A DNA stretch of 64,000 nucleotides from an uncultured Planctomycetota bacterium (GCA_963737655.1 CAVTTN010000002.1:5280001-5344000), one strand, 5' to 3'. Positions 2,617 through 29,647 are shown, counted from the stretch's first letter. The notes: generated by a model not told the origin, from the sequence alone. Numbers and translations: made by a program.

Positions 2617-2649
2617 GCGAATTCGAGGGAGGTTGAACCGCCAATTCGA

Positions 2650-2871
2650 GGGGGATTGAACCGCCAAGACGCCAAGATCGCCAAGGTGAATAAGAGGAGA
2701 AGAAGAGGAGAGGAGAGGAGAAGACAAGAAGAGGAGAAGAAGAGATTTCAAAACTCTTCTCTGATTACTTTCTCTTTTTATTAACTTGTCTTTTCTTATT
2801 AACTTGTCTTCTCTTTTTCCTCTCGTTTTGTCCTCCTTGGCGATCTTGGCGTCTTGGCGGTTCAATCCCCC
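2650..2871. repeat. ~220 bp intergenic element with perfect 37-bp terminal inverted repeats (MITE/REP-like)
   Basis: GGGGGATTGAACCGCCAAGACGCCAAGATCGCCAAGG (2650-2686) is the exact reverse complement of 2835-2871. The interior is AT-rich, purine-rich then pyrimidine-rich. It lies between convergent genes. Confidence 0.9.
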
Positions 2872-2996
2872 CGGATTTCAGGCGTGGGCCGAGGCGGCGC
2901 CGATCTTGAACGGATTTTCGCAGGCCCGACTGAAGTCGGACCTACTCGTATGCTCATTCTCACCGAGGTTTTCTGCAGGGCACCGAAGGGTGCGTT

Positions 2997-3449
2997 TCAG
3001 GCCCCGGAGAGCGGGATCTCGTGATACGCCAGCGCCCATTCCTTCATGAAGCGGACTTGGTGGGGATCGACCCGGTAGACGATCAGGTCGGGGTTGTCGA
3101 TCGACCCGAGGTACTGGCGGAGCAAGGGGTTGGCGTCCCAGATCTCCTGGAGGACGGCTCGATCCGAGACGAGGGCGGCGGTCCCGGTGATCCTCACCTG
3201 GTCGTGGTGGTCGTCGAGATAGACGAGCTCGACCCGGGGATTGGCGGCGATCTCGGCGGTCTTGTGATAGGCCCGCAAGTTGGCGATGAAGACGGTGAAC
3301 CCCTCGGTCTTCACCGGGGAGACCGGGCGGACCCGGGGCTGGTCGCCGTCGATCGTGGCGAGGTGGGGGAAGCGGTCGGCCTGGACGACGGCCAGGGCGA
3401 GCTCGCGGAGCCGTCCGGGTTCGATCGGTTCGGGCAATGGCTTGCTCAT
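2997..3449 (-). CDS. pyridoxamine 5'-phosphate oxidase-like FMN-binding protein
   Basis: 150 aa from the ATG at 3449; LATIDGDQPRVRPV, K..EIAANPRVEL and QVRITGTA split-barrel motifs. Confidence 0.85.
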   Translation of the reverse strand: MSKPLPEPIEPGRLRELALAVVQADRFPHLATIDGDQPRVRPVSPVKTEGFTVFIANLRAYHKTAEIAANPRVELVYLDDHHDQVRITGTAALVSDRAVLQEIWDANPLLRQYLGSIDNPDLIVYRVDPHQVRFMKEWALAYHEIPLSGA

Positions 3450-3711
3450 CGGCGGAGGCCCTTCGAGACCGGGTTTCGGGGGGACGTGCCGGCCCCGAGG
3501 ATAGGGTGTAGCTCCCGAATCTGGAGCTTTTTTTCGGGTGCCTCCGGTTCGAGAACCGGGGGCACCCCAGGAGTTCCAGATTCCAGAGCGATACCCCCGA
3601 GGATACCGGATCGGGCGTCGTCGATCATTGATCGGGCCTCCGGGCGTGGTCATGATGGAGGGCCTGGAGAGAGAGACCGCGCGAGGGCGTCCCTTTTGGG
3701 GAGACACCGGG

Positions 3712-6700
3712 ATGAGACGGAGCTTCCTCGGCTGGGCGGCGGTGGCGTCGGCCCTCCTCGCGACCGGCCCGGCCCGAGGGGAGCGGACGGTGTGGGTCGT
3801 GGCCATCGGCGTGGAGGCGCACGACGACCCGGCGTTGGGCGCGAACCCGGGGGCCCGGGCCTCGGCCGAGGCGGTGGCGACGTGGTTCCGGGGGATGGGG
3901 GCGTCGGCCCGGGTGGCGTTGCTGACCGATTCGGCGCCCAAATCCTCGGACAACGCCGACCGCCGGGCCCGGATCGAGCGAGGGGCGCCGCTCCGGGCCG
4001 ATTCCGAGACGATCCGCTGGGCCCTGGGCCGGTGGATCGCCTTCCGGTCGTCCGAGGAGGCGAGCGTGGTCATCTATTTCGCCGGCAAGACGGCCCGGGC
4101 CGGCGGGGAGGCGTTTCGCCAGCAGCTGGTGCCCGTCGATGGCGAGGCGAAGGCGCCGGAGAGGCGCGGGGTGGCCCTGGAGCGGGACTATTTCGCCGCG
4201 AACCTGTCGGCCCGGTCGCGGAGGCCCACGCTCCTGCTCCTGGACACCGCCCCGGCCCCTTCGGAGAAGAGGACGGTGGTCGCGGCCGACGACCCGGGCG
4301 AACGATGGCTCGTCCGGCTGGCGCCGGCCGGTCAGAACGCCTCGGCGTGGCTGGCGGCGGAGTCGGCCCCGCCGGACCTCTCCGCCAGGGCCGGGCGGTC
4401 GGCCCTGGCCTCGGCGTTCGTCGCGGCGATGGGCGACCCGAAGGCCCCCCGGGCCTTGCCCGAGGCGCTGGGGAGGCTCCGTCGCGACCCGGGATTGGCC
4501 CGCCAGGGGTTCCGCACGGTCGGCGTGGTCCCGCCGTCGTGGTCGCTCGGGCCGGAGCCGGGGCCGAGGGTCGAGCCGGCCCCGGCCGAGCTGCTGATCA
4601 AGCGGGGGCATAGCGACGTGGTCACGGCCGCCTTCTTCTCGGCCGACACCGACCGGCTCTTCACCGCCGGCAAGGACGCCACGATCCGCGTCTGGCTCCG
4701 CGACGACGCGACGGCCCGGGCGTTGAGCGATCCGGCCCGGCGGCTGGAGCCTCCGCCGTTGCTCAACGTCCTGACGCACAACGAGAACGAGATCCGCGGC
4801 GTGGCGATGAGCCCGGACGAGCGATGGGTCGTCAGCGGCGACAACCTCGGGGGGGTCTGGGCGTGGGACGCCCTCCGGCGGTCGGCGTTCCGGCTGAACG
4901 AGCCCGGGCCCGGCCCGGCCGGTCGTGGCCGTGGGGTTCCTGCCGGGATCGGGCCGCCTGGCGGCCGTGATGGAGGAGCGGCTCTGGATCTGGGACGCGA
5001 TCGGCCCGGATTCGCGGCCCCGGGCCATCACCCCTCCGCGATCGACGTCCAGGGCCGCATTCGCGACGGCCGAGGGCGGGGCGGCGGCGGCGGCCTCGGG
5101 CTTCGACGGCCGAATCCGGGTCTTCGACGCCTCGGGCCGCGAGGTCCTGGTGCTCTCGCCGTTCGAGGGGCCGGAGGCGGCCGAGGGGGTCGCGACCCGG
5201 GGGCCGGCGATCTCGGCCGACGGCTCGACGGTGGCCGCCGGGACGTCGTCCGGCGCGCTCTGGGCCTGGAGGCTCGCGGAGGCCGGGGGCTCGTGGAAGG
5301 CGGGCGAGCCGGTCCGCCGGGAGACGCTCGGGGACGTGAAGGAGGTGGCCGTCTCGGCCGAGGGCGGGACCGTGGCGGCGGCCTCCGGCAACCGGGTCCA
5401 CCTGGTCCCGACCGCTCCGGGCCAGGCCGATCGCGCGGTGGCCTTGACCGGGGCGACCGCGCCGATGGCCTTCTCGCCCGACGGCCGATGGCTCGTGGCG
5501 ACCGGAGAGCGAGGCGGCTCGGGGGCGTGGGGGGGGACGGTCCTGTGGAGGCTCGATCCCCGGGCCCTCCCCCTGATCTGGCCGCTCCGCAACCCCGAGG
5601 CGGACCGGCCCGGGGGGGTGGCGGCGCCCCCGGTGACCTCGGCCCTGGCGTTCTCGCCCGACGGCCGGGCCCTGGTCCTGGCCGACACCTCGGGAGAGGT
5701 GCGGGCCTGGGACCTCCCCTCGGGCGAACGCCGGGCGACGATCCCGGCCGGGGCGGGCAAGGTCGGCCAGATCGCCGCGGCGCCCGAGGGCTCGCTCCTC
5801 CTGCAGATCACCGCCCTGCCCGACGGCATCGCCCGGGCCTGGGACCTCCGCGTCAACGCCCAGGGGATCGAGAACGTGGCCGCGCCCCTGCCGGCCGTCG
5901 AGGGCGCGCGGTGGGACGCCGGCGCCGTCCTCCCCGGAGATCGCGGGATCGTCCTGACCTGCTCCGAGGACCTCCACAAGGTCCACGTCGTCGATCCGGT
6001 CTCCGGCCGGAAGAAGGCGGACCTGGAATGGCCCAGGGACTCGCAGACCGGCGCCTTCCTGCCCCGGTCCTTCACCACGATCGCCGCCACGGCCGACGGC
6101 CATTACGCGGCCGGGGGCAGCGCCCAGGAGCTCAGCGGCCCGGCCTGCGTGTGGGACCTGGAGAAAGGGACGTTGCTGTTCACCTATCGGGACGAGAAGT
6201 ACGGCGTGAAGGTCGTGGCGTTCCCGCCCGAGGGCAACGCCGTCCTGGCGGGGATGACCGACGGCTCGGCCCGCCTTTTGAGCCTGGAGCCCGAGCCCCG
6301 GGTGCTCAAGGCCTATGACACCGGCGACGGCTCGGAGGTCACGGCCCTGGCGATCCACCCGAAGGACGGCCGGATCGTGGCCGTGGGGAGCCGGTTCGGG
6401 CGGGTCGCGGTGTTCGGCCCGGGGGACGGCCCTCCTCGCGAATTCCTGGCCCGAGGAGCGCGGATCAGCCCGGTCACGGCCCTGGCCTTCACGCCCGACG
6501 GCACCCACCTGGCCGCCTCCCGGGAGAACGAGAAGGCCCCGTGGCTCTGGACGACCGACGACCCGGCCCGCCCGATCCGCCTGGTCGGCCATACCGAGAG
6601 GGTCGCCTCGCTCCTGGCCTGGCCCGGGTCGCGCGTCCTGTTCGAGCGCCGGGGACGACGGGACCATCCGGGCCTGGTCGGTCCGGGACGGCTCGGCCCT

Positions 6701-8087
6701 GGGGACGCTCACGACCCTGGCCGACTCGACCGAGTGGGTCGCCTTCACCCCGGACGGGCTCTTCGACGGCTCGCCCGTCGGCTGGAGGCGGGTGGCGTGG
6801 CGGATGCCGGGGTTCCTGGAAGTCCGCCCGGTGGGCCTGTTCTTCAACGACTTCCGCGCCTCCGGGCTGGTCCGACGCATCCTCAAGGCGGACCGGCCGA
6901 GCCCCAAGGGGCTGACGATCGGCCAACGCCCCGCGCCCAGGGTCACCTTGACCGGCCCCGAGTCCTCGACCCTGGAGAAGCCCGAGGCCGTCCTGAAGGT
7001 CTCGCTGAGGGACGAGGGCGGCGGGATCGGCCGGCTGACCGCCTCGAGGACCGGGCCCGACGGCGTCCTCACGCCGATCCGGCCGGGCGGCCCGGGCGCC
7101 TCGGGCGTGGGCGGGTCGAGGGAGCTGGAAATGATCATCGCCCTGTTCCCGGGGGAGAACCGGATCGAGGTCCGCGCCGGCAATGAGGACGACTCGGAGC
7201 AATCCGCCCCGCAGACCCTGGTGCTGACCTACGCCCCGCCGAAGCCCGTGGCGGTCGCCCCCCGGCTCCACGTCCTGGCCGTCGGGGTCAGCCGCTACCG
7301 GGTGGACGGGATCTCCCTGAAATACCCGGCCGGCGACGCCCTGGCGATCGCCGAGCTGTTCCGCGCCCGCAGCCCGGCCGTCTTCGGCCGGGGCCACGTG
7401 ACGGTCGCCCCGGTCCTGACCGACGAGAAGGCCACCAAGGCGGCGATCCTCGACGCCCTCCGCGGCCTCGTGGCGACGACCCGGCCCGAGGACACGGTGG
7501 TCCTCTACCTCGCCGGTCATGGCGTGGTCAGCCCGGACCGAGACGGCCGCGACGCCTATTATTTCTGCCCCCACGACGTCGATCCGGCCGACGGGCCGGG
7601 CCTGACGATCTCGGCGATCTCGACCGACGAGCTGGCCCGGGCCCTGTGCGAGTCCCCGTCCGGGCGGACCGCCTCGCGACGGGTGCTGATCCTGGACACC
7701 TGCGGGGCCGGACAGGTCCTGGCCGACCTGCCCGCGAAGCTGATCGGCATCCTCGACGCCTCGGCCCGGGACCGAGGGCAGATGATGATCGCGGCGAGTT
7801 CGGCGCGAGGCAAGGCCGACGAGTCGGAGAAGCTCCGCCACGGCATCCTGACCTATACCCTGCTGGCCGCCCTCGGCGCCGTGCCCCGGGCCCCCGAGAT
7901 CCTCCCCGCCACCATCGAGAACGCCCCCGGAGACCTCATCGACGCCAGGATCTGGTTCCACTTCGCCAGCGACTGGGCCCGGGACGTCGGAGAGAAGGTC
8001 CGGGTGGACGAGCCGCCGTCGGTCCAGGTCTCCTCGCCCGTCCCGCAGATCAACCTGTTCCGCATCGATCGCCCGGGGGGCCGGTGA
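3712..8087 (+). CDS. exported pseudo-caspase / WD40 / caspase (peptidase C14) protein; two apparent frameshifts (~4911, ~6644)
   Basis: Joined from ORFs 3538, 4925 and 6315. Signal peptide MRRSFLGWAAVASALLATGPARG; degenerate C14-like N-domain (VVAIGV, IYFAGK, LLLDTA); many GH...AFSPDG...WD repeats; C-terminal C14 domain with VLYLAGHG and LILDTCGAG. Confidence 0.8.
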
Positions 8088-8126
8088 CCGGGCGGACCCT
8101 CGGGGAATCGGCACCGATCCTCGCGT

Positions 8127-10608
8127 CTACCGCCCCCGGGCCCGGCGATCGGGGCATTCCAGGACGATGCGGAACCCCAGGTCATTGGGGAGGGTCCCGT
8201 CGTCGGGGACGACCTGGGCGGGCGTCATCGGGTCGCCCTGGGCGGGTTCGGTGCGGAAGGAGCCTCCCCGGACGAGGAACGAGCCGGACTGGCCCTCGGC
8301 GGCGTCCCGGCACCATTCTCGGGCGTTGCCGGCGAGGCTCAAGACGCCCTGTTCGGTCACGTCCCCCGAGAAGGGGTGCTGGACCGGGAACAGGGGGATC
8401 GGGAGGTTGGCGATCCCGGGAGGGGCGATCCCTCGGAGGTTCGCCCAGGGGTCGCCGGGGGCCGGCCTCCGGCCCTGGGGCATCCAGGCGAAGACGTGAA
8501 CCAGCGGCTTGCCCCCGGACCGGGCCGCGTATTCCCACTGGAGGCTCGTCGGCATCCGGCCGAAGTGGGAGCGGGCGAACGCCCGGGCCATCGCGTGGCT
8601 GACGGCCACGGCCGGATACGCCTCCGCCTGGGCCGGCGGTTGGCCGTCGAAGGCGAAGAAATTCTCCAGGCCGGACATCGCATCGGACCACCGGAGAGGA
8701 TCGCCGGGGGGCTGGCCCACCTGGAGGAACCGGCGGAACTCGCCGTTGGTCACCTCGGTGGCCTGGAGGTAGAACGGCGGGACGACGACCGCCTTGTTGC
8801 TCCCCCCGGCGCGAACTCGCCTCGGGGGAGCCGGACGAACGGCGTGCCGTCGGACTGCCGGACGATCCTCCGGGGCCAGCCGTCCTCGTCCAGGTCCGAG
8901 CCCTCGGCCCGGGCGTACCCTTCGGGGAGATACACGTTGTCCGTCGAGAGCAGGAACTTGACCCCGTCCTCCTCGCGGATCACGGCCCCGGGCCACGGGG
9001 TATCGATCCCGTCCGGCGCCAGGGGGACGCAGCCCAGCGACTTCCACGAGGCCAGCGGCGGAGTCGGAGTCGGCGGCGGAGTCGGTGTCGGTGTCGGTGT
9101 CGGTGTTGGGGTCGGTGTTGGGGTCGGCGGAGTCGGCCTCGTTCGGTCCGCGACCGGGAACAGGAATGCCCGGATCGGCCCCCGGGCCGCGAAGCCCGAC
9201 GCCCCCAGGCCGACCAGGACGACCGCCGCGACCAACCACCGCAAGCCCGCCCCGGACCCCGGCCCCGGCTCCCGCTCCGGTCGAGGCGCGACCGGGTGAT
9301 CCGGGAACCGGCCGATCGGCGGCGGCGGGGCCTCGGCGGCGACGGGGATCGGCATCGGCATCGGCATCGGAGTCGGAGTCGGGGTCGGCGGATGGGAGAG
9401 GACCTCGCCCGACTCCTCCATCGAGGGCAGGGATTGCGGCGCGAGGTGAGGAAGCCGAGTGGGAGGCGAGGCCAGGCCGTCGCGGTTCATCGGCGGGGCC
9501 GTCGAGGCCAGGCCCAGGGCCTGGAGGAACTCGTCGGCGAGCTCGCGGGCCGACTGCGGGCGGTCGGCCGGGTTCTTGGCCAGGCACCTCATCACCAGCC
9601 TCTCGACGGCCCCGGGGACCCGGACCTCCGGGTTGGCCGCGCCGAATGGCGGGGGGGCCTTGGACAGGTGGTCGTTCAGGACCATCTGCGGAGTCCCCCG
9701 GAACGGCCGATAGCCGGTGAGCATCTCGTAGATCAGGACGCCCACGGAGTACAGGTCGCTCCGGCCGTCGAGCTCTCGGCGCCCCGGCACTGCTCGGGGC
9801 TGGAGTAATACGTCGTGCCGAGGAAGCAGCCGGGCAGGGTGCGGAGGCCGTCGTCCAGGGAGTCGTCCTGGCGGATCTTGGCGATCCCGAAGTCCAGGAC
9901 CTTGAGGTTCCGGCCCGGCGGCCGGCCGTCGACGAGCATCAGGTTCGACGGCTTGAGGTCGCGGTGGACCACCTCCAAAACGTGGGCGACCTGGAGGACG
10001 TCGCACAGGGGCTCGACGACGTGGGAGACCCATTCCAGGTCCATCGGCCGGCCGGGCCGGAGCAGGGCGTTGAGGCTCTTGCCGCGGATGTACTCCATCT
10101 CGATGAAGGCCGAATCCTTGGCGAGCCGGGCGTCGTGGACGGCCACGGCGTTGGGGTGATCCAGCCGGGCCATCACCCGGGCCTCGCGGAGGAACCGGGC
10201 CCGGACCTGGGGATCGGTGGCGATCGCCGGGCTGATCAGCTTCAGGGCGCGCTCGGCGTCGAGCTCGGCGTGGCGGACCAGCCACACCGACCCCATCCCG
10301 CCGGAGCCCAGCTGGCGCTCGACCCGGTATCGGCCGAAGAGCACCTGCCCGGGCTCGGGCTCGTCGCCCACGGACATCGACGCCAGGAGCTCCGACGACC
10401 CGACCACCGCCGGGCCGCCGGTCCCGGGCGGAGGCGGCGGGAGCAACGGGGGCGGCGTCGCCTCGTCCCGGCCCCGGGGCCGCGTCTCGGGCGACCAGCC
10501 CGGCGCCACGCCCCACGAGCTGGGCGCGCCCGGATCGTCGGACGCGGCGAACTGCGACCGCGTCTTCGGATCGACCGGATCGGGCTGTCCCGCCTGGGGT
10601 TGCGACAT
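8127..10608 (-). CDS. membrane Ser/Thr protein kinase with C-terminal FGE-sulfatase (SUMF1-like) domain; two apparent frameshifts (~9775, ~8805)
   Basis: GSGGMGSVW, ALK, HRDLKPSN, DFG, SPEQ and SDLYSVG kinase motifs; TM helix WLVAAVVLVGLGASGFAA; Pro-Thr linker; TEVTNGEF, PTSLQWEYAAR, GNAREWC, RGGSF and LGFRIV FGE-fold motifs. Confidence 0.88.
9059..9137. repeat. hexamer tandem repeat encoding a Pro-Thr linker in the kinase
   Basis: GGAGTC/GGTGTC/GGGGTC units read on the minus strand as PTPPTPTPTPTPTPTPTPTPPPTPTP. Confidence 0.8.
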
Positions 10609-10872
10609 CCGCCACGCTCCCAACCGAGGGCCGCGACGCGCCCCGGACCACCGGACCTCTCGCGGGCCTCCTTCCAGATATACGCGATCTCCGCCGCCCA
10701 TTCCAAGCTTTCCGCCGTCACGCCCGACGGTTTTCCCCGTCCCCTCCCCTCCGGCCTCGGGCCGCCGGCCCCGGCTCCCCCCCGATGCGTTCGATAGTTC
10801 GAAATATCTCCGAAATAACACCGGTCCCTTGACAGCCCCCGCGGCCCCACTGATGATCCCCTTCCAATCCGC

Positions 10873-10920
10873 GCGTGTCACTTCTTTTTCGTTTGACACG
10901 CCACGGGTGCCTTGTACATT
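10873..10920 (+). promoter_or_regulatory. candidate sigma70-type promoter of the giant-protein gene, overlapped by an inverted repeat
   Basis: TTGACA (10893-10898) - 16 nt - TACATT (10915-10920); GCGTGTCA-N13-TGACACGC (10873-10901) overlaps the -35. Confidence 0.5.
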
Positions 10921-11032
10921 GGACTTCGGTCGATCTCCCAGTTCCCCCATTTCCCCGTTGCATCAATTATCTACCCATCCCCCCTAATCGATATTCATGC
11001 CCGATGTGGGGGATTTTTCCGGAGCCCAACCG

Positions 11033-14000
11033 ATGCGGCAGGGCAAGGCGAAGGCGCGACATCTCGGCTACGATCGCCGGCGATCTCATGGGCGGCTGAG
11101 CCTGGAGGCCCTGGAGCCCCGGCAGCTCTTAGCGACCCTCACGGTGACCATGTCGGGCGATGCCGCCGGGGCGACGGGGACGCTCCGCGATGAGCTTTCC
11201 AAGGCCAACTCGCCGGGCGGCGACTCGATCGTCTTCGACCTGCAGGACCAGAATCCGGACGCCGGTAACAACGAGACCATCACCCTGAATTCCCCGGTCA
11301 CCGTCGGCGGGATGGTCACGATCCAGGGGATCGCCGTCGGCGGGACCCATTCGACGATCACGATCGATGGCGGGGGCAAGGCGTTCGACGGCCTGATCCT
11401 CACGGGCGACGCGAACTCGCTGAGGAACCTGACGGTCAACGACTTCGGCGGCAGCGGCGTGGTGATCCAGGGCGGCACCGGCGACACGATCGTCGGCAGC
11501 TTCCTCGGCACCGACTCCAGGGGGGCGGCGGCCATCGCCAACGGCGGGGCCGGCATCCTGATCATGGCCGGCGGCAGCACGATCGGCGCCCTGGCCATGC
11601 CCAACGTGATCTCCGGCAACGGCGGCGCGGGCGTGTCGATCGCCGGGACGGCCTCGGGCAACGTCCTGATCGGCAACAAGCTCGGCGTCGGCGCCGACGG
11701 CACCACCCCCCTGCCCAACAGCATCGGCGTGGGCCTCAGCGGAGTGACCGGCAACACCATCGGCCCGGGCAACGTGATCGCCGGCAACCTGGCCGAAGGG
11801 GTCCGGATCGACGGCGGCTCGAAGAACGTCGTCACGGGCTCCTACCTCGGCACCGACCCCGCCGGGGACGACCTCCACAACGGCACCTTCGGCGTGGTGA
11901 TCGGCCCCGCCACGGCCTCGGACGGCAACACCATCGGCGGGGCCGCCGTCGCCGACGGCAACACCATCGCCTTCAACCCCACGAGCGTCCGCGTCCACTC
12001 CGGCACCGGCAACTCGATCCTCACCAACTCGATCCACGACAACAAGACCGCCGGGATCGCCCTGGACCCGGGCGCCAACGAGGACGTGACCGCGCCGACC
12101 GTGAACGCCGCCCTCGATTTCTCGGCGACTTACACCACCCGTCAGGGCGTGATCGCCCGGGGGACCGTGACCGGGGTTCTCGGGGCCGACGGCAAGTACC
12201 TCGTCCAGTTCTTCTCCGACCCGGCCGCCGACGCCAACCTCGACGAGGGCCGGACGTTCCTCGGCAGCACCGTCGTGACCGTCGCCGCCGGGACCGGCGC
12301 GTTCGACGTGGACCTGACCGGGACCGTCGCCGTGGGCGACTACATCACGGCCACCGCGACGACGCCGACCGGCAGCACCTCGATGTTCTCGGCCGCGACG
12401 AAGACGACCGACGCGCTCCTCGTGACGACCACCGGCAACGACCCCGCGACGCCCGGCACCCTGCCCTACGCCCTCCAGGCCGCCAACGACCACAAGAACG
12501 CCACCGACCGCATCCACTTCGACATCTTCTCCGGCCCATTCGTGATCGCGCCAACCGATACGCTGACGGCGACCGACCCGGTCATCATCGACGGCACCTC
12601 GCAGATTGGCTACACCACGACCCCGATCATCGAGATCAGCGGGGCGAACGCGCCGACGACCTCCGACGGCCTCGTCTTCGACGCCGGATCGGGCGGGAGC
12701 GCCCTGGTGGGCGTGGCGGTCTACGGGTTCGGAGGCACCGCCGCCCCCCTGGCCAGCAACGTCGTCCTGAACTCCGACGGCGACGCCATCGCGGCCGATT
12801 TCCTCGGCCTCCAGCCCGACGGCACCGCCCTGAACACCGGGGTTGGGCTGACGGTCAAGTCGGCGAGCAACACCATCGGCGGGTCCGGCGCGGTCACGAT
12901 CGGCCCGGCGGGGGCGTCCGTGACGGTCGCGAACCCCGGCAACCTGATCTCGGGCAACGCGGGCGATGGCATCCTCCTGACCGGCGCCGGGGCGACCGGC
13001 AACCGCGTCCTGGGCAGCACGATCGGCGCCGATGTGACCGGGGCGACGGCCGTCCCCAACGGCGGATCGGGCGTGACGATCGTCTCCGGGGCCTCTTTGA
13101 ACACGATCGGCGGGTCGAAGGCCGGCGAGGGGAACCTGATCTCCGGCAACGCGGGGTCCGGCGTGTCGATCACCGGGACGACCGCCACGAGCAACCTCCT
13201 GCTCGGCAACTTCGTCGGCACCACGGCCGACGGCAAGTCCGTCCTGGCCGGGACCTCGCAGCCGACGGGCGTGTTCCTCGACACGACGACCGGCAACACG
13301 ATCGGCGCCGGCAACGTCGTCTCGGGCGGCACCTCGGCGAACGTCGAGATCAACGGCGGGTCGAAGAACGTCGTGTCCGGCAGCTTCGTGGGGACGAACG
13401 CCAGCGGCTCGGCGGCCCTGGCCGGCACCTCGCCCACCGATGGCGTGTATGTGAACGGATCGGCGTCGAACACGATCACCGGGAACCTGATCTCGGGGAA
13501 CGCGACCGGGGTGGTCCTCTCCGCGGCCGGCGCCACCGACAACGTCGTGATCTCGAACCGGATCGGCACGGATGCGGCGGGCTCGGCGGCGGTGGGCAAC
13601 AACGTCGGCGTGAGCGTCGATACCAACGCCTCGGGCAACGCCATCGGCCAGAGCGGCTCGGGCAACCTGATCTCGGGGAACTCCGCCGACGGCATCCAGA
13701 TCATCAACAACGGCGCCTCCGCCAACACCATCGCCGGCAACACGATCGGCCTGGACCTCTCCGGCTCGGCCAAGCTCGCCAACGGCGGGGCCGGCCTGAA
13801 CGTCGGCAACTCGTCGCTCCTCCTGATCGGCGGCAGTGCCACCGGCGCCGGCAACGTGATCGCCGGCAACGCCCACGAGGGGGTCATCCTGGGCTCCACC
13901 AGCCCGGCCCTCTCCAACACGATCCAGGGCAACGCCATCGGCACCGACCGCGCCGGGACCGCCACGACCCTGGGCAACGGCGCCGACGGCATCCTGATCA

Positions 14001-20000: not shown

Positions 20001-22115
20001 CGTCCTGCTCTCCGACGCCCAGTTCACGATCATCGGCGGCGCCTACGGGAACGGCGGCAACTTCATCTCCGGGAACGCCGGGGGCGGGATCGCCCTGTAC
20101 AACGGGTCGGGCGACACGCAGATCTTCGGCAACGTGATCGGGATGGGCGCCGACGGCAACATCCCGGCCGGGACGGTCACCAATGGCGCGGTCCCGGGCA
20201 TCCTGATCTCGGACTCCCACTCGACGACCGTCGGCGGCCTCCTGGGCTCGACCGGCAACGTGATCTCGCGGAACACCGGCGACGGGATCGACGTGTTCGG
20301 CTCGGCCTCGGCCGCGACGGCGATCCTCGGCAACTTCATCGGCACCCTTCCCGGCGGCGGAGGGGCCGCGCCCAACGGCCTGGTCGTGACCCAGGCGTCG
20401 GGGCCGCTGAAGGGCGTGGGCCTGGCCGAGGGGGACGGCGTCCTCGTCGTGGGCGCGTCGGGCGTGACCATCGGCGGGTCCGGCTCGGCGGGCAACGTGA
20501 TCTCGGGCAACCTCAAGAACGGCGTCGAGTTCCAGTCGGCAGCGAGCGCCGTGGTCCAGGGCAACAAGATCGGCACCGACGCTTCCGGGACGATCCGGAT
20601 CGCCAACGGCCTGCCGTTCGGCCCGGGATCGCGGATGGAGTTGGCCGATTCCGGCGGGGTGATCGACTCGGAGTTCCTCAACGACGCCGGGGGCAACCCG
20701 GTCAGCCTCAAGAACGCCTATTCCAACGGCGTCCTGGTGGTCGATTCGCCGGGGGCGACGATCGGAGGCGCGGGCGGGCTGGGCAACGTGCTCTCGGGCA
20801 ATGGCTCGAACGGCCTGGTCCTCCAGGGATCGGGGACGTCCGGCGCGTCGGTCGGGGGCAACGTGATCGGCCTGGCGGCCGGGGGTTCGGTGCCCTCGGT
20901 CAGCCTGGGCAACTACGGCGACGGCATCCTGATCGACGGATCGGGGAAGAACGCGATCGGGGCCCCCGGCTCGGGCAACATCATCGCGGCCAACGGGTTC
21001 ACCCGGAGCACGACGTTCCCGACGACCTCGGACCTCACCGCCGGGGTGTTCCTCCAGGGTCAAGGGGCGTCGGGCAACGTCCTCCGGGGCAACACGATCG
21101 GCTCGGACGCCTCGGGGACGACCCGGGCCCCCTGCCCGATCACCTGGTCAATCCGTTCGGCGTGGTGGCCCAGACCGGCGGCCTCGGCGGCGTCTTCCAG
21201 CCGGCCGGCGTGTTCGTCCTGGATGCCCCGAAGAACACGATCGGCGGCGTCCTCGGGTCGTCGGGCAACGTGATCTCGGGCAACGGGTTCGTCGGGGTGG
21301 ACGTCCGGAGCAAGATCGCGGGCTTCGCCACCCAGGCCGACCAGGACGGCGACGGCGGGGACGGCACGCTCGCCGGGGGCAACCTGATCGTCGGCAACTT
21401 CGTCGGGACCAACGCCTCGGGCGGCTCCACGGTGCCCAACGGCTCGACGATCTCGACCGGCACGGTCGGGGCGGGGATCTACGTGAACAAGGCGTCGAAC
21501 ACCACGATCGGGGGCAGCCGGGCCGACGGCGCCGGCAACGTGGTCTCCAACAACCAGGCCTCCGGCGTGGAGATCCTGGGCGACCCGAAGGGGAACACCC
21601 CCAACGGCGCCGGCACGCTCGTCCAGGGCAACATCATCGGCCTGGACCCGACCGGGATGATGGCCCTGGCGAACCTGGCCGACGGCGTGTATGTGGTCAA
21701 CGCCCCGGGAGCGACGATCGGCGGGGTCGGCTCGCCGTTCGTGATCGGCAACGTGATCTCGGGCAACGGGGCCGACGGCATCCACCTGTTCGACTCGGGG
21801 ACCGTCGGCACCCGGATCGGCTCGAACTTCCTCGGGACGGACATCCTGGGCAAGACGAAGACGGGCGTCGGCAACTGCGCCTACGGCATCCTGATCGACG
21901 ACGGCGTGAAGGACGCCAAGGTCTTGAACGGGTCGCAGAGGAACTTCGGCAACGGCTTCGGGCCGGTCCGCGATACGAGGCTCGACTCGTCGGCCGAGCA
22001 CGTCCCGGCCGGCGCCCGCTTGGGCGGCGGGATGGTCTGCACCCCGGGCCAGACCATGAAGGCCAAGGCCCGGCTCCTGCATCACTTCAAGACGGCGAAG
22101 ACGGCCAAGGGCTGA
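11033..22115 (+). CDS. giant (~3,690 aa) parallel beta-helix repeat surface protein with planctomycete extracellular (LEPR-xLL) N-terminal motif; two apparent frameshifts (~14872, ~21130)
   Basis: Joined from ORFs 10997, 14893 and 21162. GGAG precedes the ATG at 11033; RLSLEALEPRQLLA motif; dozens of GNxISGN / IGTD / GN..DGV repeats; duplicated VQFF...EGRT.LG...TATxT..GSTSxFS modules. Confidence 0.85.
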
Positions 22116-22122
22116 GAGAGGT

Positions 22123-22179
22123 TGCCATGCTCGGGGGTCATCGCCCACGAAGACGTGGGCATGACTCCCGGGGATGGCA
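22123..22179. repeat. REP-like hairpin between convergent genes
   Basis: Imperfect stem with core GCCCACG-AAGA-CGTGGGC (22143-22160); same family as 31570-31668. Confidence 0.75.
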
Positions 22180-22191
22180 TCGAGCCCGCGA

Positions 22192-23700
22192 TCATCGGAC
22201 GGCCACCGGGGGCGCCCGGCGCCGACTCCCGGCATGCCGATCCCCCGGCCGTTGCCGCCGAACCGCAGGTTGAAGAGGGCCACGATCTCGTAGTCGAACG
22301 GCTTCGGGCCGGTGATCGGGGTCACGTAGGCGAGCGTCAGGAACGCCCTCTGGCGGAGGACCACCGTGGTCCCGAACGTCAGGTTCACGATGTCCGGCTG
22401 GCTGGCCGGGTCGTTGGTGTGGAACCCTCGGTGGTTCAGGGGGACGTTCAGGTGGGTCTCGAACGTCGGGACGATCGCCGTGACCAGCGCGTTCTTCTGC
22501 TTGTTCTGGTAGGCGTAGTAGCCGATGGCCAGGTCCTCGAAGAGGATCGTGGAATCGTTCGGGTCGGTCGGCACGGCGATGGCGGTGAAGCCCTGGAGGT
22601 ACGCCCGTCCCTGGGAGAAGAGGTAGCCGACGAACGGCTGGATCTGGGTGTTGCGGAAGCCGACGATGTTGTTATAGCCGCCGAAGGATTTCGGGCCGGT
22701 CGGCAGGGAGAGGTCCATGCCGAGGGTCAGGAGCTTCCTCCAGTCGTCGCTGGCCATCAGCACATACTTGCCGAAGACGCTGAGGTTGCCGAGGGCCGAG
22801 TGCGTCCCCCCGTAGCCGGGCTGGAAGCTGTCCACGACGATCGTGTTGACCGGCTCGCGGAGGCCGAAGGAGGCCCGGCCGTCGAGGAACGTCTTCTCGA
22901 AGCCGAACAGCTCGCGATAGGCGCGGACGTGGGTGATCGGGGCGAGGACCCTCTGGTTGTAGGAGCGATTGATGTTGTCGTAGAAGTTGAAGTCGCCAAA
23001 AATCCGGTCGATCGGCCGGGGGTCTGGTTCTCGGCGATCTTGAAGCCCCGGATCGGGGCGCTGAGGCCCTTGATCGGCCGGGGGGCGGAGGGGGCGGAGC
23101 CGGGGGGCAGCTCGCTGCCGGTTCCGGCGGCCTGGTAGATGCGGAACGGGAGCATGTCGCCGATGATCCCGGGGGGGGCGCCTCCCGAGCTGAGGCCCTG
23201 GCCCTCCTCGGAGGAGACCGCGGCGCCCGGAGCGGCGGCGCCTCCGGTCGCGCCGAGGCCGCCGGAAGTCCCGTAGGGGCTGGCCATCCCCGGCGCGGTC
23301 GCCCCTCCCGAGGCCATGGCCGTGTTCGGCGATCGGAACTCGGGGGCGCCGAGGGCGGCCCCCTGGAGGGTCATCCCCAGGAACCCCTTGCCGTGGCCGT
23401 GGCCGTGGCCCCGGCCTCCGCACGGGCAATTCGGCCGTGTACAGGCCGGAGAGCCCGGCAGGCCCTGCGGGCTCGCCTTCGCCGGAGGTGCCTGGGGCGT
23501 CGGTAGGGGGGCGAACGGGCCGGCGCCTGGGGGCTCACGACCTCGGACTCACCCCGGGCGGCCCCGGGCGCCGAAGATTCCGGACGCGCGTTCTGGAAAT
23601 AGGCCGACTGGTACGGCGGGTCGTCGGCCCGGGCAATCCCGACCGTCAGGCCGATCAGCGTGAACGCGGCCCCGAGAGCGGCGTAATGCTTTTGATCCAT
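22192..23700 (-). CDS. putative outer-membrane beta-barrel protein with a long low-complexity N-terminus; apparent frameshifts (~23510, ~23020, ~22215)
   Basis: Signal peptide MDQKHYAALGAAFTLIGLTVGIARA; Pro/Gly-rich linker; RGFKIAENQTPRPIDRIF; amphipathic strands including LGNLSVFGKY and LGMDLSLPTG, reminiscent of COG4313/Phenol_MetA_deg barrels. The stop at 22192 assumes one lost G and is uncertain. Confidence 0.65.
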
Positions 23701-24018
23701 CGAATCGGGCTCCTGAGTCGTCCGATTAGGATTTTCGTCCGAACGGCCCCGCTCGGGACCGTACATGCCTTCAGGGGTGGGTCGATTCGAGGGCGGTCCG
23801 GTTGCGCCGGAACCCCGGATTCGTCAACCTCTAGCTGGGATATCGACCATCGGGATTTTTCGGTTTGCAGAATTCGGCCTCTTCCGACAATGATTACTAT
23901 TGTGCGGTTTGCCCCGGCCATGCGAGCGCTCGCCCCGCGAGGAGGCGGCCGCCGTCTCGGGTCGATCGCGTCGAGGCGAGGGGGCCGGCCCGAGGTCGGG
24001 CGCGGGGAGAGGGCAGCC

Positions 24019-27000
24019 ATGAGCGGAGCGTCCGGTCGTCCGGGGGCGATGTGGGGACTCACCGTCCTCCTGAGCATGGTCGCGGCGATGGCCTGGGCCT
24101 CGCCGTCCCGGGCGCAGTATGCGTCCCGGAAGTTCGTGGACGAGCCGATCCTGGTCAACACCGGCGAGGGGCACACGGCCCCGGTGGAGGCCCTGGTCTT
24201 CGACCCCGACACCGGCCGGCTGCTCTCCGGAGGGGACGACAAGGTCATCCACGTCTGGGGCCCGGCCGAGGACGGCCCCCGGCCGCTCCAGACCCTCCGG
24301 CCGCCGATCTGGAGGGGTTTCGGCGGCAGCGTCTGGGCGATGGCGATCAGCCCGGTGGCCGACGCCCAGGGGCAGCGGTGGCTGGCCGTCGCCGGCTATG
24401 GGGTGGCGGCGCAGAGGGGGGAGATCCTCCTGTACCGCTACCCCGGGATCGCCGCCCAGGCGACCGGGGATCTCGTGAAGAAGCTGCCCCCGACCCAGGA
24501 TGGCGGCCTGCCCATCGCCGACCCGGGGCATACCGAACCGGTCCGCGCCCTGGCCTTCTCCCCGGATGGCCGACGGCTCGCCTCGGCCGGGCGCGACGGC
24601 TCGGCGCGAGTCTGGGACCTGGCCACCGGGACGGCGATCGTCTTGAACGTCGGCCCCGGCGAGATCCTCCGAGGCGTGGCGTTCACGCCCGACGGCCGCC
24701 TGGTCGTCACCGGCGGCAACGACGGACTGCTCCGGCTCTGGGACCCCTCCCGGCCCGCCCGGCCAATCCACCAGGTCGGGCCGTTCGACGCCCGAGACAA
24801 TGGCCGCCTGGCGCGATCCAGTGCCTGGCGATCCGCCGGGATGGCCGGGCCGTGATCCTGGGGACCGAGGGGGGCCGGCTCATCCAGGTCGGCCTCCAGG
24901 GCGCGGCCTTCGGCGGGTTCGAAGACCTCCTCCCGGAACGCAAGGACCGCGGGTCGGTGGAGTCCCTGGCGATCAGCCCCGACGGCCTGAAGGTCGCCGC
25001 CGGGGTGATCCTCCGGCGGATCGCCGACCCCCGGGAGCTGCCCGACAGCCGGTCCGAGGTCGTCGTGATCCGCCTGGACACCAGGCTCCCGGACCGGCCG
25101 TCGATGCCCAGCGAGTCGAAGGTCTATGCCTGCGCCTTCTCGGCCGACGGCTCCCGGCTGGCGTTCGCCGACGGGGCCAAGGTGGTCGTCCAGGACCTGG
25201 CCGCCGGGGGAAGCGCGCGGACCCTCAGGGGTCGCGGGGCGGCGATCCCGGCCCTCGGCTTCCTTCGAGACGGCCTGACCGTCGGCTTCGCCCGGTCCCG
25301 GCCCGATCCCGGCTCGGTCCCCTCGTATCGAGGCTTCGACCTCCTCCAACGCCGGGCCGTCCCGGTCCGGGGCGAGGCCCTTCAAGGGGCCGTTACGACC
25401 GACCGCGGCCTGACGATCCGGCCGGCGACCCAGTATTCGCTGAACGTCCTGGACGAGGCCAATCGCGGCTGGACCCTGAATCTCGACTCGAACATGGACG
25501 GCCGATGGCGGTCGTTCAGCTTCTTGCCGGGTCGGCCCCGGCCGATGGTGGCCGTGGGCTGCCGGGTGGGCACGGTCCTGTTCCGGCTCGACGCCGACGG
25601 CCGGGCGGTCCGCACCCACATCTTCGCCGGCCATTCCGGGGACGTCCTGGCCCTCGCCCCCTCGCCCGACGGCAAGTGGCTGGCGACCGGCTCGGAAGAC
25701 CAGACCATCCGGCTCTGGTCGCTCGAGGGCTGCGACCGCCCGGCCGAGCTCGGGGCCACGTTCCTCGCCTCGCCCAATGGCCAGACGGTCGTGGGCGACG
25801 TCCGGCCCATGTCCTTCGCCGAGACCGTCGGCATGAAGCCGGGGGACGTGATCGAGACGTTCCAGTTGAACGATCCCAGGCCCGGATCGCCGACGCTCCT
25901 CCCCTCCCGAGAGGAGTTCCTGAAGAAGATCGCCGAGGGGATCGAGCCCAACACCAAGGTCTCCTTCCACGCCCGCCGCAAGGGGTTCGCGCCGAACGAC
26001 CCGGCCGGCGTCGCCAAGTATGGGACGAGCCTCCGGGACGGCCCGACCCTGACCCTGTTCCCGACCGAGGACCGCGAATGGGTCCTGTGGACGCCCCAGG
26101 GGTATTATGACTCGTCGGTCGAGGGGGATTTCTCGTTCCTGGGCTGGCAGAAGAACCGGGGAAGCCTGGACGGCTGGAAGCCGTCGTTGTTCTTCCGGAT
26201 CAGCGAGTTCGAGCGCGAGCTGAGGAGGCCGGAGGTCCTGGATCGCCTGATCCGGACCGGTCGGATTCGCCCGGCCCTGGCCTCGTCGGCGAAGCCGACG
26301 CTCCGGGCGGCGACGCCCCTTCCTCCGCCGCCCCCGAGGACGCTCGCCCAGGGCTTGCCGAAGGCGCCGAGGGGACCGCTGGTCCGCCCCTCTCCGCCTC
26401 CGGCCGTGGCGACGATCCCCCGCCCTCCGGCCGACGCCCGGCTCGTCCTGGCGACCCCGCCGTCGATCCGGTTCCTCGGGCCCTCGCACCGCGAAGGGGC
26501 GGCCGTCGTCTCCCTGATCCAGACGGTCGAGGTCCGGGTCCAGGTCGAGCCCCAGGACGGCCGTCCGGTGGTCGGGCTGGAGGCGACCGTCGAGGCCTCG
26601 GCCGTCCCGGGCTACCCTCGGCAGATCGCCCCTCGGGCCCAGGCGTTCGAGGACACCTTCCGCGCCTCGCTCCAGCCGGGGCTGAACCGGGTGGTCGTCC
26701 GGGCCCGGAACGACCGGGACAAGGCGGGCGAGGCATCCCTGGAGATCTATTTCGCCGACCCGAAGCCCCGGCCGCCCCGGGTCCTCCTCGTGGCGATCGC
26801 CGCGGGCGCCTTCCCCCAGGCCCCCGAGCACGACATCCGGTTCGCCGAGAAGGACGCCCCGGCCGCCCTGAACGCCCTGAAGGGCCTGGCCGACCGGAGC
26901 AAGCTGGACGTCGAGATGATCGGCCCGCTGACCGGCCAGGCCGCCACCTCGGCCCAGATCGACGGCGTCCTGGACGGCCTCGACCAGGCCATCGAGCGCC

Positions 27001-27581
27001 GGACCGTCCATCCCGGGGACACCGTCGTGATGTTCCTGGAGTCGCACTTCCTCCGGTTCGGTGCCGCCTCGGCGGAGGGGTTCGCCGGGGCCGACCTGAC
27101 CTCGCCGCCCTCGCCGAAGGCGACCATCCCGGCGGCGAAGCTCGCCCACGTCCTCGGCCGCCTCCGCACCGAGGCCCGATGCCAGGTCGTCCTCATGATC
27201 GACGCGATCCACGACGGCGCCTCGCCCCAGCTCCAGACCCGCCCGTTCGATGATTGGGTCCGCGAGCTGACCTTCCGCAAGGGCGTGATCACCGTGATCG
27301 CCTCCAAGGACCTGCCCAGCCTCCGGGGCAACGACCTCGGCCTGTTCGCCTGGGGCCTCACCCAGATCGACCAGCCCCGCAATCGCCAGAGGTTCCTGGG
27401 AATCCGCCGGCCCGAGGTCCCCCTGACGCTCGACGAGCTCGGCCGGGCCCTGTCGGGGGTCGTGGGAGAGGAAAGCAACAGCGAGCAGGCCGTCGGCTAC
27501 TACATCCCGGCCAGCCTCAGCCACCGGACCCCATTCCTCGCCCCGCCGACCGACGGCGGTCGGGTGGTCCGGGCGAAGTGA
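24019..27581 (+). CDS. exported WD40 / PDZ-like / pseudo-caspase protein; one apparent frameshift (~24808)
   Basis: Signal peptide; WD40 repeats (GHTAPVEAL, GHTEPVRALAFSPDG, GHSGDVLALAPSPDG); PDZ-like LGATF...VRPMSFAETVGMKPGDVI; Ig-like LQPGLNRVVVRA; C14-like domain with FLESHF and LMIDAIH, lacking the catalytic Cys. Confidence 0.8.
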
Positions 27582-27610
27582 GGTGACGGGGGCCGGCCCC
27601 CGGTCCCCGG

Positions 27611-29647
27611 CTACTTCTCCAGGAGCCGCTCGTCTTCATAGCCGACCTGGACGACGGCCAGCAAGCGGCCCTTGCGGCGGAACTCGGCGGTGGTGAAGGT
27701 GCGGGCCTCCTTCTGGCCGCCGACGACCCGCAGGGCCCGGCTCGTGTCCTCGGCGAAGAAGGCGGCGGTGATCAGGCCGAGGCTCTCGGCGGGGTCGCGG
27801 CGGGAGCCTTCGTCCTGGGGCACGTTCTCGAACCGGAATCGTTGGAGCTCGAACGCGCCGGCCTCCCCCGGGGCGTTGGCCGCGGCCCTGGGGATCGAGA
27901 ACCCCTCGATCTCGGTCGATCCGCCGGGTTCCAGGACCCACGGACGGCCCGCCTCGGCCGTCTCGGCGGCCTTGCCCAGGGTGTTCACGCCGTCGATCCT
28001 CAGGACCACGCCCACCCGGCGATCGGAGCGGTTGGTCAGCCGGACCTTGAAGACCTCGCCGTCCCGGGCCCCGACGATTCGGAGCCTGGGATCGAGGGCC
28101 CGGGCGGCCGGATCGTTCGGGACGGCGTTCTCGCGGGGGACCTTCGGCCGCCATCGCGTCGAGGCGTCCACCGCGGCCCCGGGACGGCCGTCGGCCGAGA
28201 GCAGCTCGACGCGGAACGGGAAGTCCTCGGCCCAGACCGCAACCTGGGGCCGGGCGAGGTCCACCGGCGGGGCCGGCTGGGGCGGCCCCGGCGGCCGTTC
28301 CGGAGGGCGGTTGTCCAGAGACCGGCCGATCTCGGCGGCCAGCGCCTCGTCCAGCTTCAGCCGTCCGCCGAGGCGCGCGACCGAGCCCCCTTCGGCCGCG
28401 AACAGCTCGCACTGGACGCCCATCGCCGCGTCCGAGACGCTCAGATCGCCCACGACCGAGGCCGACGGAGGCCCCGGGCGGCAGTCCGCGGCGGAGGCGT
28501 CGCGATCGACCCGGTAGGCGCCCGGCTCCGTCGGCGCGAGCCGGGCCAGCTCGTCGCCGATCGACCGGGCCAGGAGGCCGGGCAAGGGGTAGCGGGCCAG
28601 CCCCGCCCTCGCCCCGGCGACCTTCACGCGGAACTCCTTCGGCACGCCCACGCTCGGGTACTTGCGGAGCCGGACCTCCTCGTCCAGGAGCGCGGCCATC
28701 CGTCGCGAGAGGTCGTCCACCGGCTCGGGGCGGAGGCTCAGCAAGGGCGGATCGCCGTCGATCTCCCGGGAGAGCTCGCGGGCCGGGGTCTGCTCGGGAT
28801 GGTTCAGGGCCCGGATCGTCAGCGGGACGTGCTCATGGGTGTAGTTGGCCACCTCGGTGGCGGTCAATCGGCCGTCGCCGTCGGCGTCGGCGGCCCCTTC
28901 CAGGGCGCGGCGGAGCCAGTAGGTGAAGACGCTCTGGTTCCTCTCGGGCCATTCCCAGCTCGACTGGCCGTCCCGGCAGCTCTCCAGGACCACGAACGAG
29001 TTCCTCGGCACGGCACGGCCGCCCTCGGCCGGGCGGGCCGGGCCGGTGGCGATCGGGTTGGGCTGCACCGACTTGCCGCCGGGCAGGGCCCGGCCCCCGG
29101 TGTCCAGGCAGCAGTCCAGGATCAGGAACTTGGTCGTCGCCGGGCAGCCGTTGAGGTAGACCCCCAACGTCCCGGCCTTCAGGAACGTGTCGGGCGCCTT
29201 CGGGTCGGCGTCGATCGGGACGAGGTGCGGCTTGCCGTCGATCAGGAGGCCGTGGCCGCTGAAGAAGAACAAGAGCGAGTCGCCGGGCCGGATCTCGTGG
29301 AGGAACTTCGGCAGCCGGGTCGTCAGGTTGGCGAACGTCGGCCGGAGGCCCGGCCCCGAATCGTCGGCCATCTGGAGGATGTGGTCGTCCGCCACCCCCG
29401 CGCGCTCGACCAGGGTCCGCCGGAGGCCGCGGACGTCGGCCAGGGGGACGCGCAGGTCGGGGATCGCCGGGCTCTCGTAGTCCTGGGCCGCGATCAGGAC
29501 GGCCCACTGCTCGGCGGGCCGTCCGGGCTCGCCCTGGGCCTGGACCGAACCGGCCGTCCCCAGGGCCGCCATCAGCCCGAGGAACGGCCCGTACCCCGGG
29601 AGGAACCGCCGCATTCGCCGTCGAACGCTCGTCGAGGGGCCGATCAT
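27611..29647 (-). CDS. exported caspase-family (peptidase C14) protein with uncharacterised C-terminal domains
   Basis: Signal peptide (alternative start 29614); WAVLIA, FFFSGHG, LILDCC, SC..GQ.SWE, VFTYWL..AL.GAADADGDG and EQTP motifs. Confidence 0.85.
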   Translation of the reverse strand: MIGPSTSVRRRMRRFLPGYGPFLGLMAALGTAGSVQAQGEPGRPAEQWAVLIAAQDYESPAIPDLRVPLADVRGLRRTLVERAGVADDHILQMADDSGPGLRPTFANLTTRLPKFLHEIRPGDSLLFFFSGHGLLIDGKPHLVPIDADPKAPDTFLKAGTLGVYLNGCPATTKFLILDCCLDTGGRALPGGKSVQPNPIATGPARPAEGGRAVPRNSFVVLESCRDGQSSWEWPERNQSVFTYWLRRALEGAADADGDGRLTATEVANYTHEHVPLTIRALNHPEQTPARELSREIDGDPPLLSLRPEPVDDLSRRMAALLDEEVRLRKYPSVGVPKEFRVKVAGARAGLARYPLPGLLARSIGDELARLAPTEPGAYRVDRDASAADCRPGPPSASVVGDLSVSDAAMGVQCELFAAEGGSVARLGGRLKLDEALAAEIGRSLDNRPPERPPGPPQPAPPVDLARPQVAVWAEDFPFRVELLSADGRPGAAVDASTRWRPKVPRENAVPNDPAARALDPRLRIVGARDGEVFKVRLTNRSDRRVGVVLRIDGVNTLGKAAETAEAGRPWVLEPGGSTEIEGFSIPRAAANAPGEAGAFELQRFRFENVPQDEGSRRDPAESLGLITAAFFAEDTSRALRVVGGQKEARTFTTAEFRRKGRLLAVVQVGYEDERLLEK

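Follow-up and report, generated by a model that had tools for sequence, protein, structure and literature searches.

The 64,000-nucleotide window analyzed here (G000:C2:5,280,001-5,344,000) comes from an assembly of 7.63 Mb with a GC content of 69% and contains six large genes (g1 to g6) between positions 3712 and 29647, with no other genes intervening. Five of these genes, which encode two WD40 proteins with caspase-fold (C14) domains that are predicted to be exported, a receptor kinase, an outer-membrane barrel and a giant beta-helix protein, form a real, conserved and apparently undescribed envelope module. Genes were delineated by codon-position GC and translation, domains were identified using Pfam, with remote C14 domains detected by HHalign profile comparison, and signal peptides were judged by eye and from hydropathy. 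Codon-position GC, translation and the Pfam matches bear out the six genes, their order and strands, and the uninterrupted block described in an initial annotation that was made from the sequence alone.

The first gene, g1 (3712..8087, plus strand), encodes a protein of ~1,450 amino acids that consists of a signal peptide, a pseudo-C14 domain, WD40 propellers, a linker and a C14 domain. It is followed by g2 (8127..10608, minus strand), a Hanks Ser/Thr kinase with a Pro-rich linker, a transmembrane (TM) helix and a periplasmic FGE-fold domain, and, across a divergent intergenic region (10609..10996) with sigma-70-like sites on both strands, by g3 (10997..22115, plus strand), a right-handed beta-helix exoprotein of ~3,700 amino acids with a LEPRxLL motif. 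The product of g4 (about 22190..23700, minus strand) has a signal peptide, a Gly/Pro-rich periplasmic linker and a predicted 12-stranded outer-membrane barrel of the COG4313/FapF fold (PF13557-like); g5 (24049..27581, plus strand) combines a signal peptide, WD40 propellers, a PDZ-like insert and a pseudo-C14 domain; and g6 (27611..29647, minus strand) has a probable signal peptide, a C14 domain with an intact catalytic dyad and a C-terminal region for which there is no Pfam model. Apart from C14, Pfam detects WD40 in g1 and g5; g2 matches the Pkinase and FGE-sulfatase models, and g3 matches Beta_helix.

An export signal or TM helix had been claimed for all six products; this is the case except for g3, which has no Sec-type hydrophobic signal peptide and only the LEPRxLL motif (PF07595, E 0.011, below the cut-off), and g6, whose probable signal peptide falls under the hydropathy threshold. 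Similarly, of the two divergent promoter regions proposed, the g2/g3 gap contains three sigma-70-like sites against 0.2 expected, whereas the same kind of search in the g4/g5 gap yields 0 sites.

Predicted active and degenerate caspase domains

The Pfam C14 model matches the C-terminus of g1 (E 1.9e-10) and g6 (E 5.4e-15). The two pseudo-C14 domains are missed by Pfam but are recognized by HHalign comparison with the g1 C14 alignment (97.9% for the N-terminal domain of g1 and 98.9% for g5). The C-terminal domain of g1, which is preceded by a short, beta-rich linker (Ig-like by eye, with no Pfam match), retains the dyad (LAGH at about 7518, LDTC at about 7701); His and Cys are invariant in 10 of 10 rows of one alignment and present in 11 of 12 rows of another, the exception being a degenerate copy in G007. 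The dyad of g6 (FSGHG at about 29254, LDCC at about 29110) is found in 5 of 5 aligned rows. Both domains belong to C14 (clan CD) and, judging from the intact dyads, are predicted to be active.

In the N-terminal domain of g1 (about 3790-4620), both the His and the Cys are replaced, and, across relatives, the His is present in 10 of 52 rows and the Cys in only one of the 52. A Protein Data Bank (PDB) sequence search with the alignment of this domain finds metacaspases, albeit weakly (E 1e-4); the search with the g1 C14 alignment finds no caspase. The g5 domain (FLESH at about 27045, MIDAI) lacks the Cys and, in Isosphaeraceae, the family discussed below, retains the His but not the Cys in all 15 family rows shown. 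These two domains are probably pseudo-enzymes, and the pattern of active and pseudo-C14 domains noted initially is kept in the alignments of g1 and g5 across relatives. Both the His and the Cys are retained in seven more distant g5-like proteins, of which six come from other families and the seventh is a second copy in G024, so that a single active WD40-PDZ-like-C14 protein elsewhere would correspond to the active/pseudo pair of Isosphaeraceae. The PDZ assignment itself is weak: the insert of g5 (about 25720-26050) and those of its relatives match PDZ models in 8 of 8 sequences (E 0.001-0.12), yet every match is below the cut-off.

Conservation of the module and the state of the window copy

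Relatives of g1 are found in 46 GTDB loci, all planctomycete, and because many of these are Isosphaeraceae, including Singulisphaera, Tautonia and Tundrisphaera, the family is given that name here. In 86 genomes of the family, each at least 80% complete, g1 and g5 occur together in 49, g1 alone in 3, g5 alone in 3, and neither in 31; the barrel is present in all 52 genomes with g1. The genes are also close to each other: where a pair shares a contig, at most 12 kb separates g1 from g5 in 34 of 41 genomes, and g5 from the barrel in 32 of 39. Thus, the synteny check does not reveal scattered orthologs lacking co-occurrence, and the proposed single envelope module holds for five genes but not for g6. 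Among 18 same-family windows centered on strong g5 orthologs, seven contain all five genes and none contains a full g6.

The usual order in relatives is g2> g1> <g5 g4> <g3. In 52 of 57 loci, the gene immediately preceding g1, transcribed in the same direction, is a kinase-TM-FGE gene of the g2 type; one of the five exceptions is explained by a contig end. The three convergent pairs originally taken as the design of the system are therefore not a conserved feature, given this co-directional arrangement of g2 and g1 and the position of g6 outside the conserved set. More than 20 genera retain the module as a set, in which a single active caspase domain and two dead ones accompany the receptor kinase and the barrel.

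In the window, the g3-g4-g5 arrangement is retained, g1 and g2 are relocated and face each other, and g6 occupies the usual place of g1, tail to tail with g5; this copy is a rearranged, fast-diverging paralog of the module. It also contains nine frame changes in five genes: in g1 near 4890-4920 and 6615-6640, in g2 near 9775 and 8830-8850, in g3 near 14870-14890 and 21130-21150, in g4 near 23500 and 23010-23045, and in g5 near 24745-24800. The 3' end of g4 is uncertain, with a probable tenth frameshift or indel. These frameshifts, the rearranged order, the long branch of the g1 N-terminal domain (2.28, among the two longest in the tree, with no starred placement) and the loss of its conserved RWPG motif would all fit a decaying duplicate of a module that is otherwise real across the family. 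The frameshift rate in the block (~0.35/kb), however, is like that of the genomic background (0.26/kb, or 9 switches in 35 kb, from 26 unrelated genes of the same assembly that were left of 64 queries after filtering), g1, g2, g4 and g5 are single open reading frames (ORFs) in relatives, and a second record of g6 (P0019), 100% identical save for one stretch, has its own pair of shifts; hence, the nine frameshifts are most likely long-read assembly errors. Given also that G/C runs lie at or adjoin most of the breaks, that there are no in-frame stops inside the gene pieces and that the catalytic motifs are intact, decay of the window copy is very improbable.

The C-terminal region of g6 is present in 4 of 301 genomes of the class, and the two other family genomes that have it lack g1 and g5; g6 is a rare accessory outside the conserved module. 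An Atlas search with this region returned leads only, with scores of 0.84 or less. The view of g6 as a stray gene was dropped because relatives of its C-terminal region lie beside WD40-C14 genes and two of its three full-length relatives are located among other C14 genes. The former are stand-alone exported proteins (L067:14960-16387 in G038 and L073:8334-11501 in G017), and C14 genes with exported products are frequent neighbors of such relatives.

Four partial copies of the module are found elsewhere in the same assembly (G000:C2:1,871,900-1,886,700; 4,133,400-4,170,600; 4,795,100-4,800,600; 2,637,900-2,645,400), one of which adjoins vgrG and one of which has a beta-helix gene of ~30 kb. The flanks of the block are unrelated to it: to the left lie genes for a carboxypeptidase-regulatory repeat protein and for a PNPOx protein, and to the right DUF1501 and PSD1/PSCyt genes. 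The repeat protein (1-2616) is truncated by the start of the window, and its N-terminus resembles, by eye, the tails of M56 peptidases. In another genome, G116, which lacks g1 and g5, nine C14 matches occur within ~110 kb (G116:C1:6,499,900-6,610,200).

The barrel, the beta-helix protein and the kinase

A model of the barrel was built on a paralog of g4 from the same genome (L026, 45% identical; pLDDT 89, 32 sequences) and has 12 strands. FapF (Foldseek E 3e-10; Z 21.9, rmsd 2.6, 227 aligned residues) and the COG4313 channel Pput2725 (4rl8; Z 22.0, rmsd 2.9, 236 aligned) are tied as the closest folds, followed by autotransporter barrels (Z 20.5); PF13557 matches 2 of 17 homologs and 30% of one Atlas cluster. 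Known COG4313 channels take up small hydrophobic molecules, whereas the barrel here is tied to kinases and exoproteins. Because FapF is tied with a small-molecule channel, the barrel fold does not name the cargo.

Gene adjacency was assessed for the module loci and for 20 of about 110 barrel matches, chosen mainly from genomes without g1 and g5. A beta-helix gene is directly adjacent to the barrel in 14 of these 20 extra loci and in most module loci, compared with a LEPRxLL start in 16% of random 19-kb windows of the assembly examined here. A kinase lies directly upstream of the barrel in 12 of the 20. Twelve kinases encoded in the 20 loci were scanned, each of the kinase-TPR type, and the seven that were read have one hydrophobic helix. 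Since barrel loci without g1 and g5 keep the kinase and beta-helix neighbors, and genomes without the caspase genes mostly retain this unit, the core consists of the barrel, the beta-helix protein and the kinase, and the caspase version exchanges TPR for FGE and the WD40-caspase proteins. The simpler unit (kinase-TPR > barrel >< beta-helix exoprotein; L165-L182) comes mostly from genomes without a type VI secretion system (T6SS). The g3 partner ranges from about 830 to about 9,800 amino acids across loci, and further LEPRxLL-type exoproteins are inserted within the module in two genomes (L098:14437-18120 in G121 and L031:7993-12513 in G024). Three of the seven loci from other families have a single WD40-C14 gene, its dyad intact, between a barrel and a kinase, and no beta-helix gene was seen there. 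The occurrence of TPR, FGE/WD40-caspase and single WD40-C14 variants beside the kinase implies that the kinase is the constant partner and the periplasmic adaptor is exchanged.

These observations bear on the possibility that the module is a Fap-like export and processing unit, in which the barrel would secrete unfolded g3, the active caspase would clip or release it, the pseudocaspase/WD40 proteins would act as chaperones, the kinase would be only a regulator, and proximity to T6SS genes would reflect co-location on an island. This is the reading closest to the idea of the initial annotation, which invoked LapG and LapA, and it accounts for both the top barrel folds and the beta-helix neighbors. 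As far as the available text of PMC5557850 goes, FapF requires the periplasmic cysteine protease FapD for secretion, and the Pseudomonas Fap system resembles the module in that a disordered periplasmic linker precedes a 12-stranded barrel of like fold, in its exported cysteine protease and in the beta-rich nature of the cargo, which for the module is a candidate one. The differences, within the same text, are that the Fap protease is C39 and that of the module is C14, that the module has a linked kinase, and that its candidate cargo is a LEPRxLL protein of 900-3,700+ amino acids without a Sec signal; the linker of g4, which is rich in Gly and Pro, shows no obvious coiled coil on inspection by eye. 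No C39 peptidase or homologs of FapA, FapB, FapC or FapE were found in domain scans of the block. The lack of a Sec signal in g3, the tie between FapF and a small-molecule channel, the absence of the caspase from most barrel-plus-beta-helix loci, the three loci in other families that have the barrel, caspase and kinase with no beta-helix gene seen, and the presence in G000 of 75 LEPRxLL-like ORFs but only 4 barrels put such a unit on the unlikely side, although it may be true alongside a sensory role in T6SS.

In LapD-LapG-LapA, LapG is a transglutaminase-like protease, LapD is a GGDEF/EAL receptor, and the adhesin is handled by a type I secretion system (T1SS). The likeness to the module lies in a periplasmic cysteine protease, a giant surface protein and an inner-membrane receptor; no T1SS, c-di-GMP receptor or transglutaminase-like protease is present in the module block. 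Judging from the modeled fold, the Fap analogy would fit the barrel better than the Lap analogy.

The kinase g2 has intact catalytic motifs and a TM helix at about 9200-9256. Its FGE-fold domain was rejected as a sulfatase-modifying enzyme because CxxxxC after RGGS is absent in all 44 rows. A complex prediction for the g1 N-terminal domain and the g2 FGE domain (orthologs from G015) scores 0.38 (runs of 0.38, 0.00 and 0.44) against 0.01 for the best of three controls, with a contact agreement of at least 23% and a partner pLDDT of at least 79. Of 157 solved pairs, 116 reach the mark applied to such predictions, as do 2 of 215 mismatches; at scores of 0.60 or less, only 18 of the solved pairs but both mismatches do so. 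The modeled pairing of the two domains receives weak support.

Type VI secretion and the putative function of the module

Proximity to T6SS genes is the strongest context signal for the module. Clustering of its neighbors reveals VgrG, ClpV and TssM. In the 86 genomes, the g1-g5 pair and tssC are both present in 41, the module alone in 8, tssC alone in 11, and neither in 26; where g1 and tssC share a contig, they lie within 75 kb in 19 of 23 genomes. In one genus (g31), three genomes that are 94-100% complete lack the module, the barrel and tssC together, and five have all three. Because tssC was not found in 12 of the 18 genomes that have the barrel but not g1, it is the caspase version that shows the stronger T6SS link. 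In G033, G022 and G061, T6SS core genes adjoin the module or are interspersed with its genes; in G061, clpV separates g4 from g5, and the kinase comes after tssE-F-G in the same orientation. FHA proteins are encoded in the T6SS loci of G033 and G116.

A precedent is provided by the H1-T6SS of P. aeruginosa, where, in the available text of PMC13713981, the FGE domain of TagR is modeled to dimerize PpkA, which phosphorylates Fha1. The same text indicates that TagQRST-PpkA-PppA-Fha1 shares with the module an inner-membrane Hanks kinase with a periplasmic domain and a non-catalytic periplasmic FGE fold (a likeness of fold only). A position in T6SS loci encoding FHA proteins would be a further likeness, which applies to relatives of the module but not to the window copy. 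As far as that text goes, the module differs in the fusion of FGE to the kinase and in its presence also in genomes without T6SS. Further additions are the outer-membrane barrel, the giant beta-helix protein and the exported WD40 proteins, which between them have two pseudo-caspase domains and an active one. No PppA was seen, and TagQ and TagS/T are lacking in the window block and among the clustered neighbors of the module, the search not being genome-wide.

A sensor of the TagR-PpkA-Fha1 type is suggested by the T6SS context, by the FGE fold and by a kinase that stays fixed while its periplasmic adaptor is exchanged. The best, if still tentative, explanation is that the five-gene module is a trans-envelope sensor similar to TagR-PpkA, with an added caspase step, that usually sets the activity of a neighboring T6SS, the likely output in most relatives. 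Beyond the observed domains, catalytic pattern, conservation and T6SS context, we infer a mechanism of five steps. The barrel g4 would export or hold the beta-helix surface protein g3, and contact or envelope damage would alter the state of this pair. The periplasmic WD40 scaffolds of g5 and g1 would then assemble, with the pseudocaspase domains as docking or allosteric partners of the sole active caspase at the end of g1. The N-terminal pseudocaspase of g1 would bind and cluster the FGE ectodomain of g2, as TagR does with PpkA, and the kinase would finally phosphorylate a cytoplasmic FHA protein encoded in the T6SS locus. As for the copy in the window, detached from T6SS genes and with the extra caspase g6, it may serve another output.

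Several observations weigh against this sensor. In 8 of the 49 module genomes, including five with a completeness of 94% or more (G030, G072, G076, G117 and G119), tssC was not found, and 11 genomes with tssC lack the g1-g5 pair, so that the possibility of the module being obligatory for T6SS was rejected. The nearest vgrG lies ~1.0 Mb away from the window copy and the nearest tssC 1.3 Mb away, and the g1 N-terminal domain of this copy combines the long branch with the missing RWPG motif. A PP2C phosphatase was found in none of the 35 T6SS-locus proteins scanned. Co-location of the module and T6SS may reflect a shared island, and, the genomes being kin rather than independent, Fisher p-values overstate the module-tssC association.

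The T6SS of this family is itself unusual. All 59 tssM matches, in 50 genomes, fall in ORFs of at most 728 amino acids (median 531), compared with about 1,100-1,200 amino acids for canonical TssM, and the six products that were read end after the last TM helix, without the periplasmic part. TssJ and IcmF_C were found in none of 5 near-complete genomes, with a positive E. coli control. Beside tssM are genes for large TM proteins whose C14-like domain is degenerate (HHalign 96-97%) and which, counted at E 1e-30 or better because weaker matches are likely ordinary C14s, co-occur with tssM in 45 of the 86 genomes (1 with the pseudocaspase only, 5 with tssM only, 35 with neither) and lie within 12 kb of it in 26 of 34. 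Judging from these sequences, the T6SS of Isosphaeraceae is possibly a new subtype, and the short TssM with adjoining membrane pseudocaspases raises the question of how it crosses the envelope.

One answer would be that the module is a structural part of an atypical T6SS, its barrel and caspase-fold scaffolds, with the TM-pseudocaspases, substituting for the missing periplasmic TssM and TssJ. The short TssM, the lack of TssJ and IcmF_C and the tracking of tssM by the TM-pseudocaspases agree with this, but there are T6SS loci without the five-gene module (G108, G110, G116, G122, G085 and G082), a 12-stranded barrel is too narrow for the Hcp tube, and the role suits the TM-pseudocaspases, which are encoded outside the window, better than g1-g5; this role of the module is improbable. 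A periplasmic caspase/pseudocaspase platform, in which the beta-helix protein held by the FapF-like barrel would trigger WD40-caspase assembly, and pairing of caspase folds would link this assembly to the FGE kinase as well as to membrane pseudocaspases replacing the periplasmic TssM and TssJ of a new T6SS subtype, is unlikely as well, but, if real, would be a bacterial analog of receptor-scaffold-caspase signaling of the caspase-8/cFLIP kind, aiming a contractile weapon.

A defense or cell-death module, sensing envelope attack and eliciting a protective or suicidal response independently of T6SS, also has to be considered, given that the available text of PMC7159879 describes membrane-associated, caspase-centered conflict systems in multicellular bacteria including planctomycetes, and given the patchy distribution, paralogs and fast divergence of the module. 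Its composition, however, is fixed rather than diversifying, and no NTPase, gasdermin-like protein or variable effector was seen among the module genes or clustered neighbors. The EACC1 partner and the MoxR-vWA core are likewise lacking in the block and clustered neighbors, and the EACC1-caspase model (NF047832) scores 71 and 85 bits against a cut-off of 140, which makes a defense function quite improbable.

To our knowledge, most bacterial caspase homologs have yet to be assigned a function, and there is no explanation for those that are exported or for the pseudo-enzymes; the module represents a defined system for testing exported caspase/pseudocaspase function in cultured strains. In the available text of PMC3501461, C14-WD40 is the commonest bacterial metacaspase/orthocaspase architecture, N-terminal signal helices are common, and the dyad is kept in only 64% of planctomycete C14s; the WD40 and FGE fusions described there are single proteins, whereas here an active/pseudo pair is conserved in a multi-gene arrangement with the kinase and barrel. 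The module falls outside TagQRST, Fap, Lap (by its generally known features) and the EACC1/MoxR conflict systems, and is considered novel because of its composition and of this lack of membership; its function is proposed. In agreement with the initial annotation, no account of the module or of a system of this composition was found in the full-text literature searched (supplements and most subscription papers being outside its scope), and a 2026 review of T6SS accessory factors (PMC13584744) contains 0 occurrences of 'caspase', 'Planctomyc' and 'FGE'. The available text of PMC7159879 and PMC3482391 describes other caspase contexts, and the supplements of these papers, outside the literature scope, could list these proteins.

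The TM-pseudocaspases are 1,300-1,900 amino acids long, often occur as tandem pairs, and some have vWA or Ig-like C-termini. Examples are L036:9177-13142, L146:9568-13500, L148:5534-15607, L160:6043-16511 and L161:7227-19875, and two loci are present in the genome of the window (G000:C2:4,000,040-4,003,882 and about 4,264,600-4,271,600). Short TssM proteins of about 480-600 amino acids, with a cytoplasmic domain and TM helices, are exemplified by L081:2429-3889 and L082:800-2281. In other families, TM-pseudocaspases occur in G041 and G053, and TssM is also short in G041, where 32 VgrG matches are dispersed over one complete genome. Finally, a divergent TssC N-domain gene adjoins a DnaK-like gene (by eye) at G000:C2:6,772,000-6,776,400, apart from T6SS core genes.

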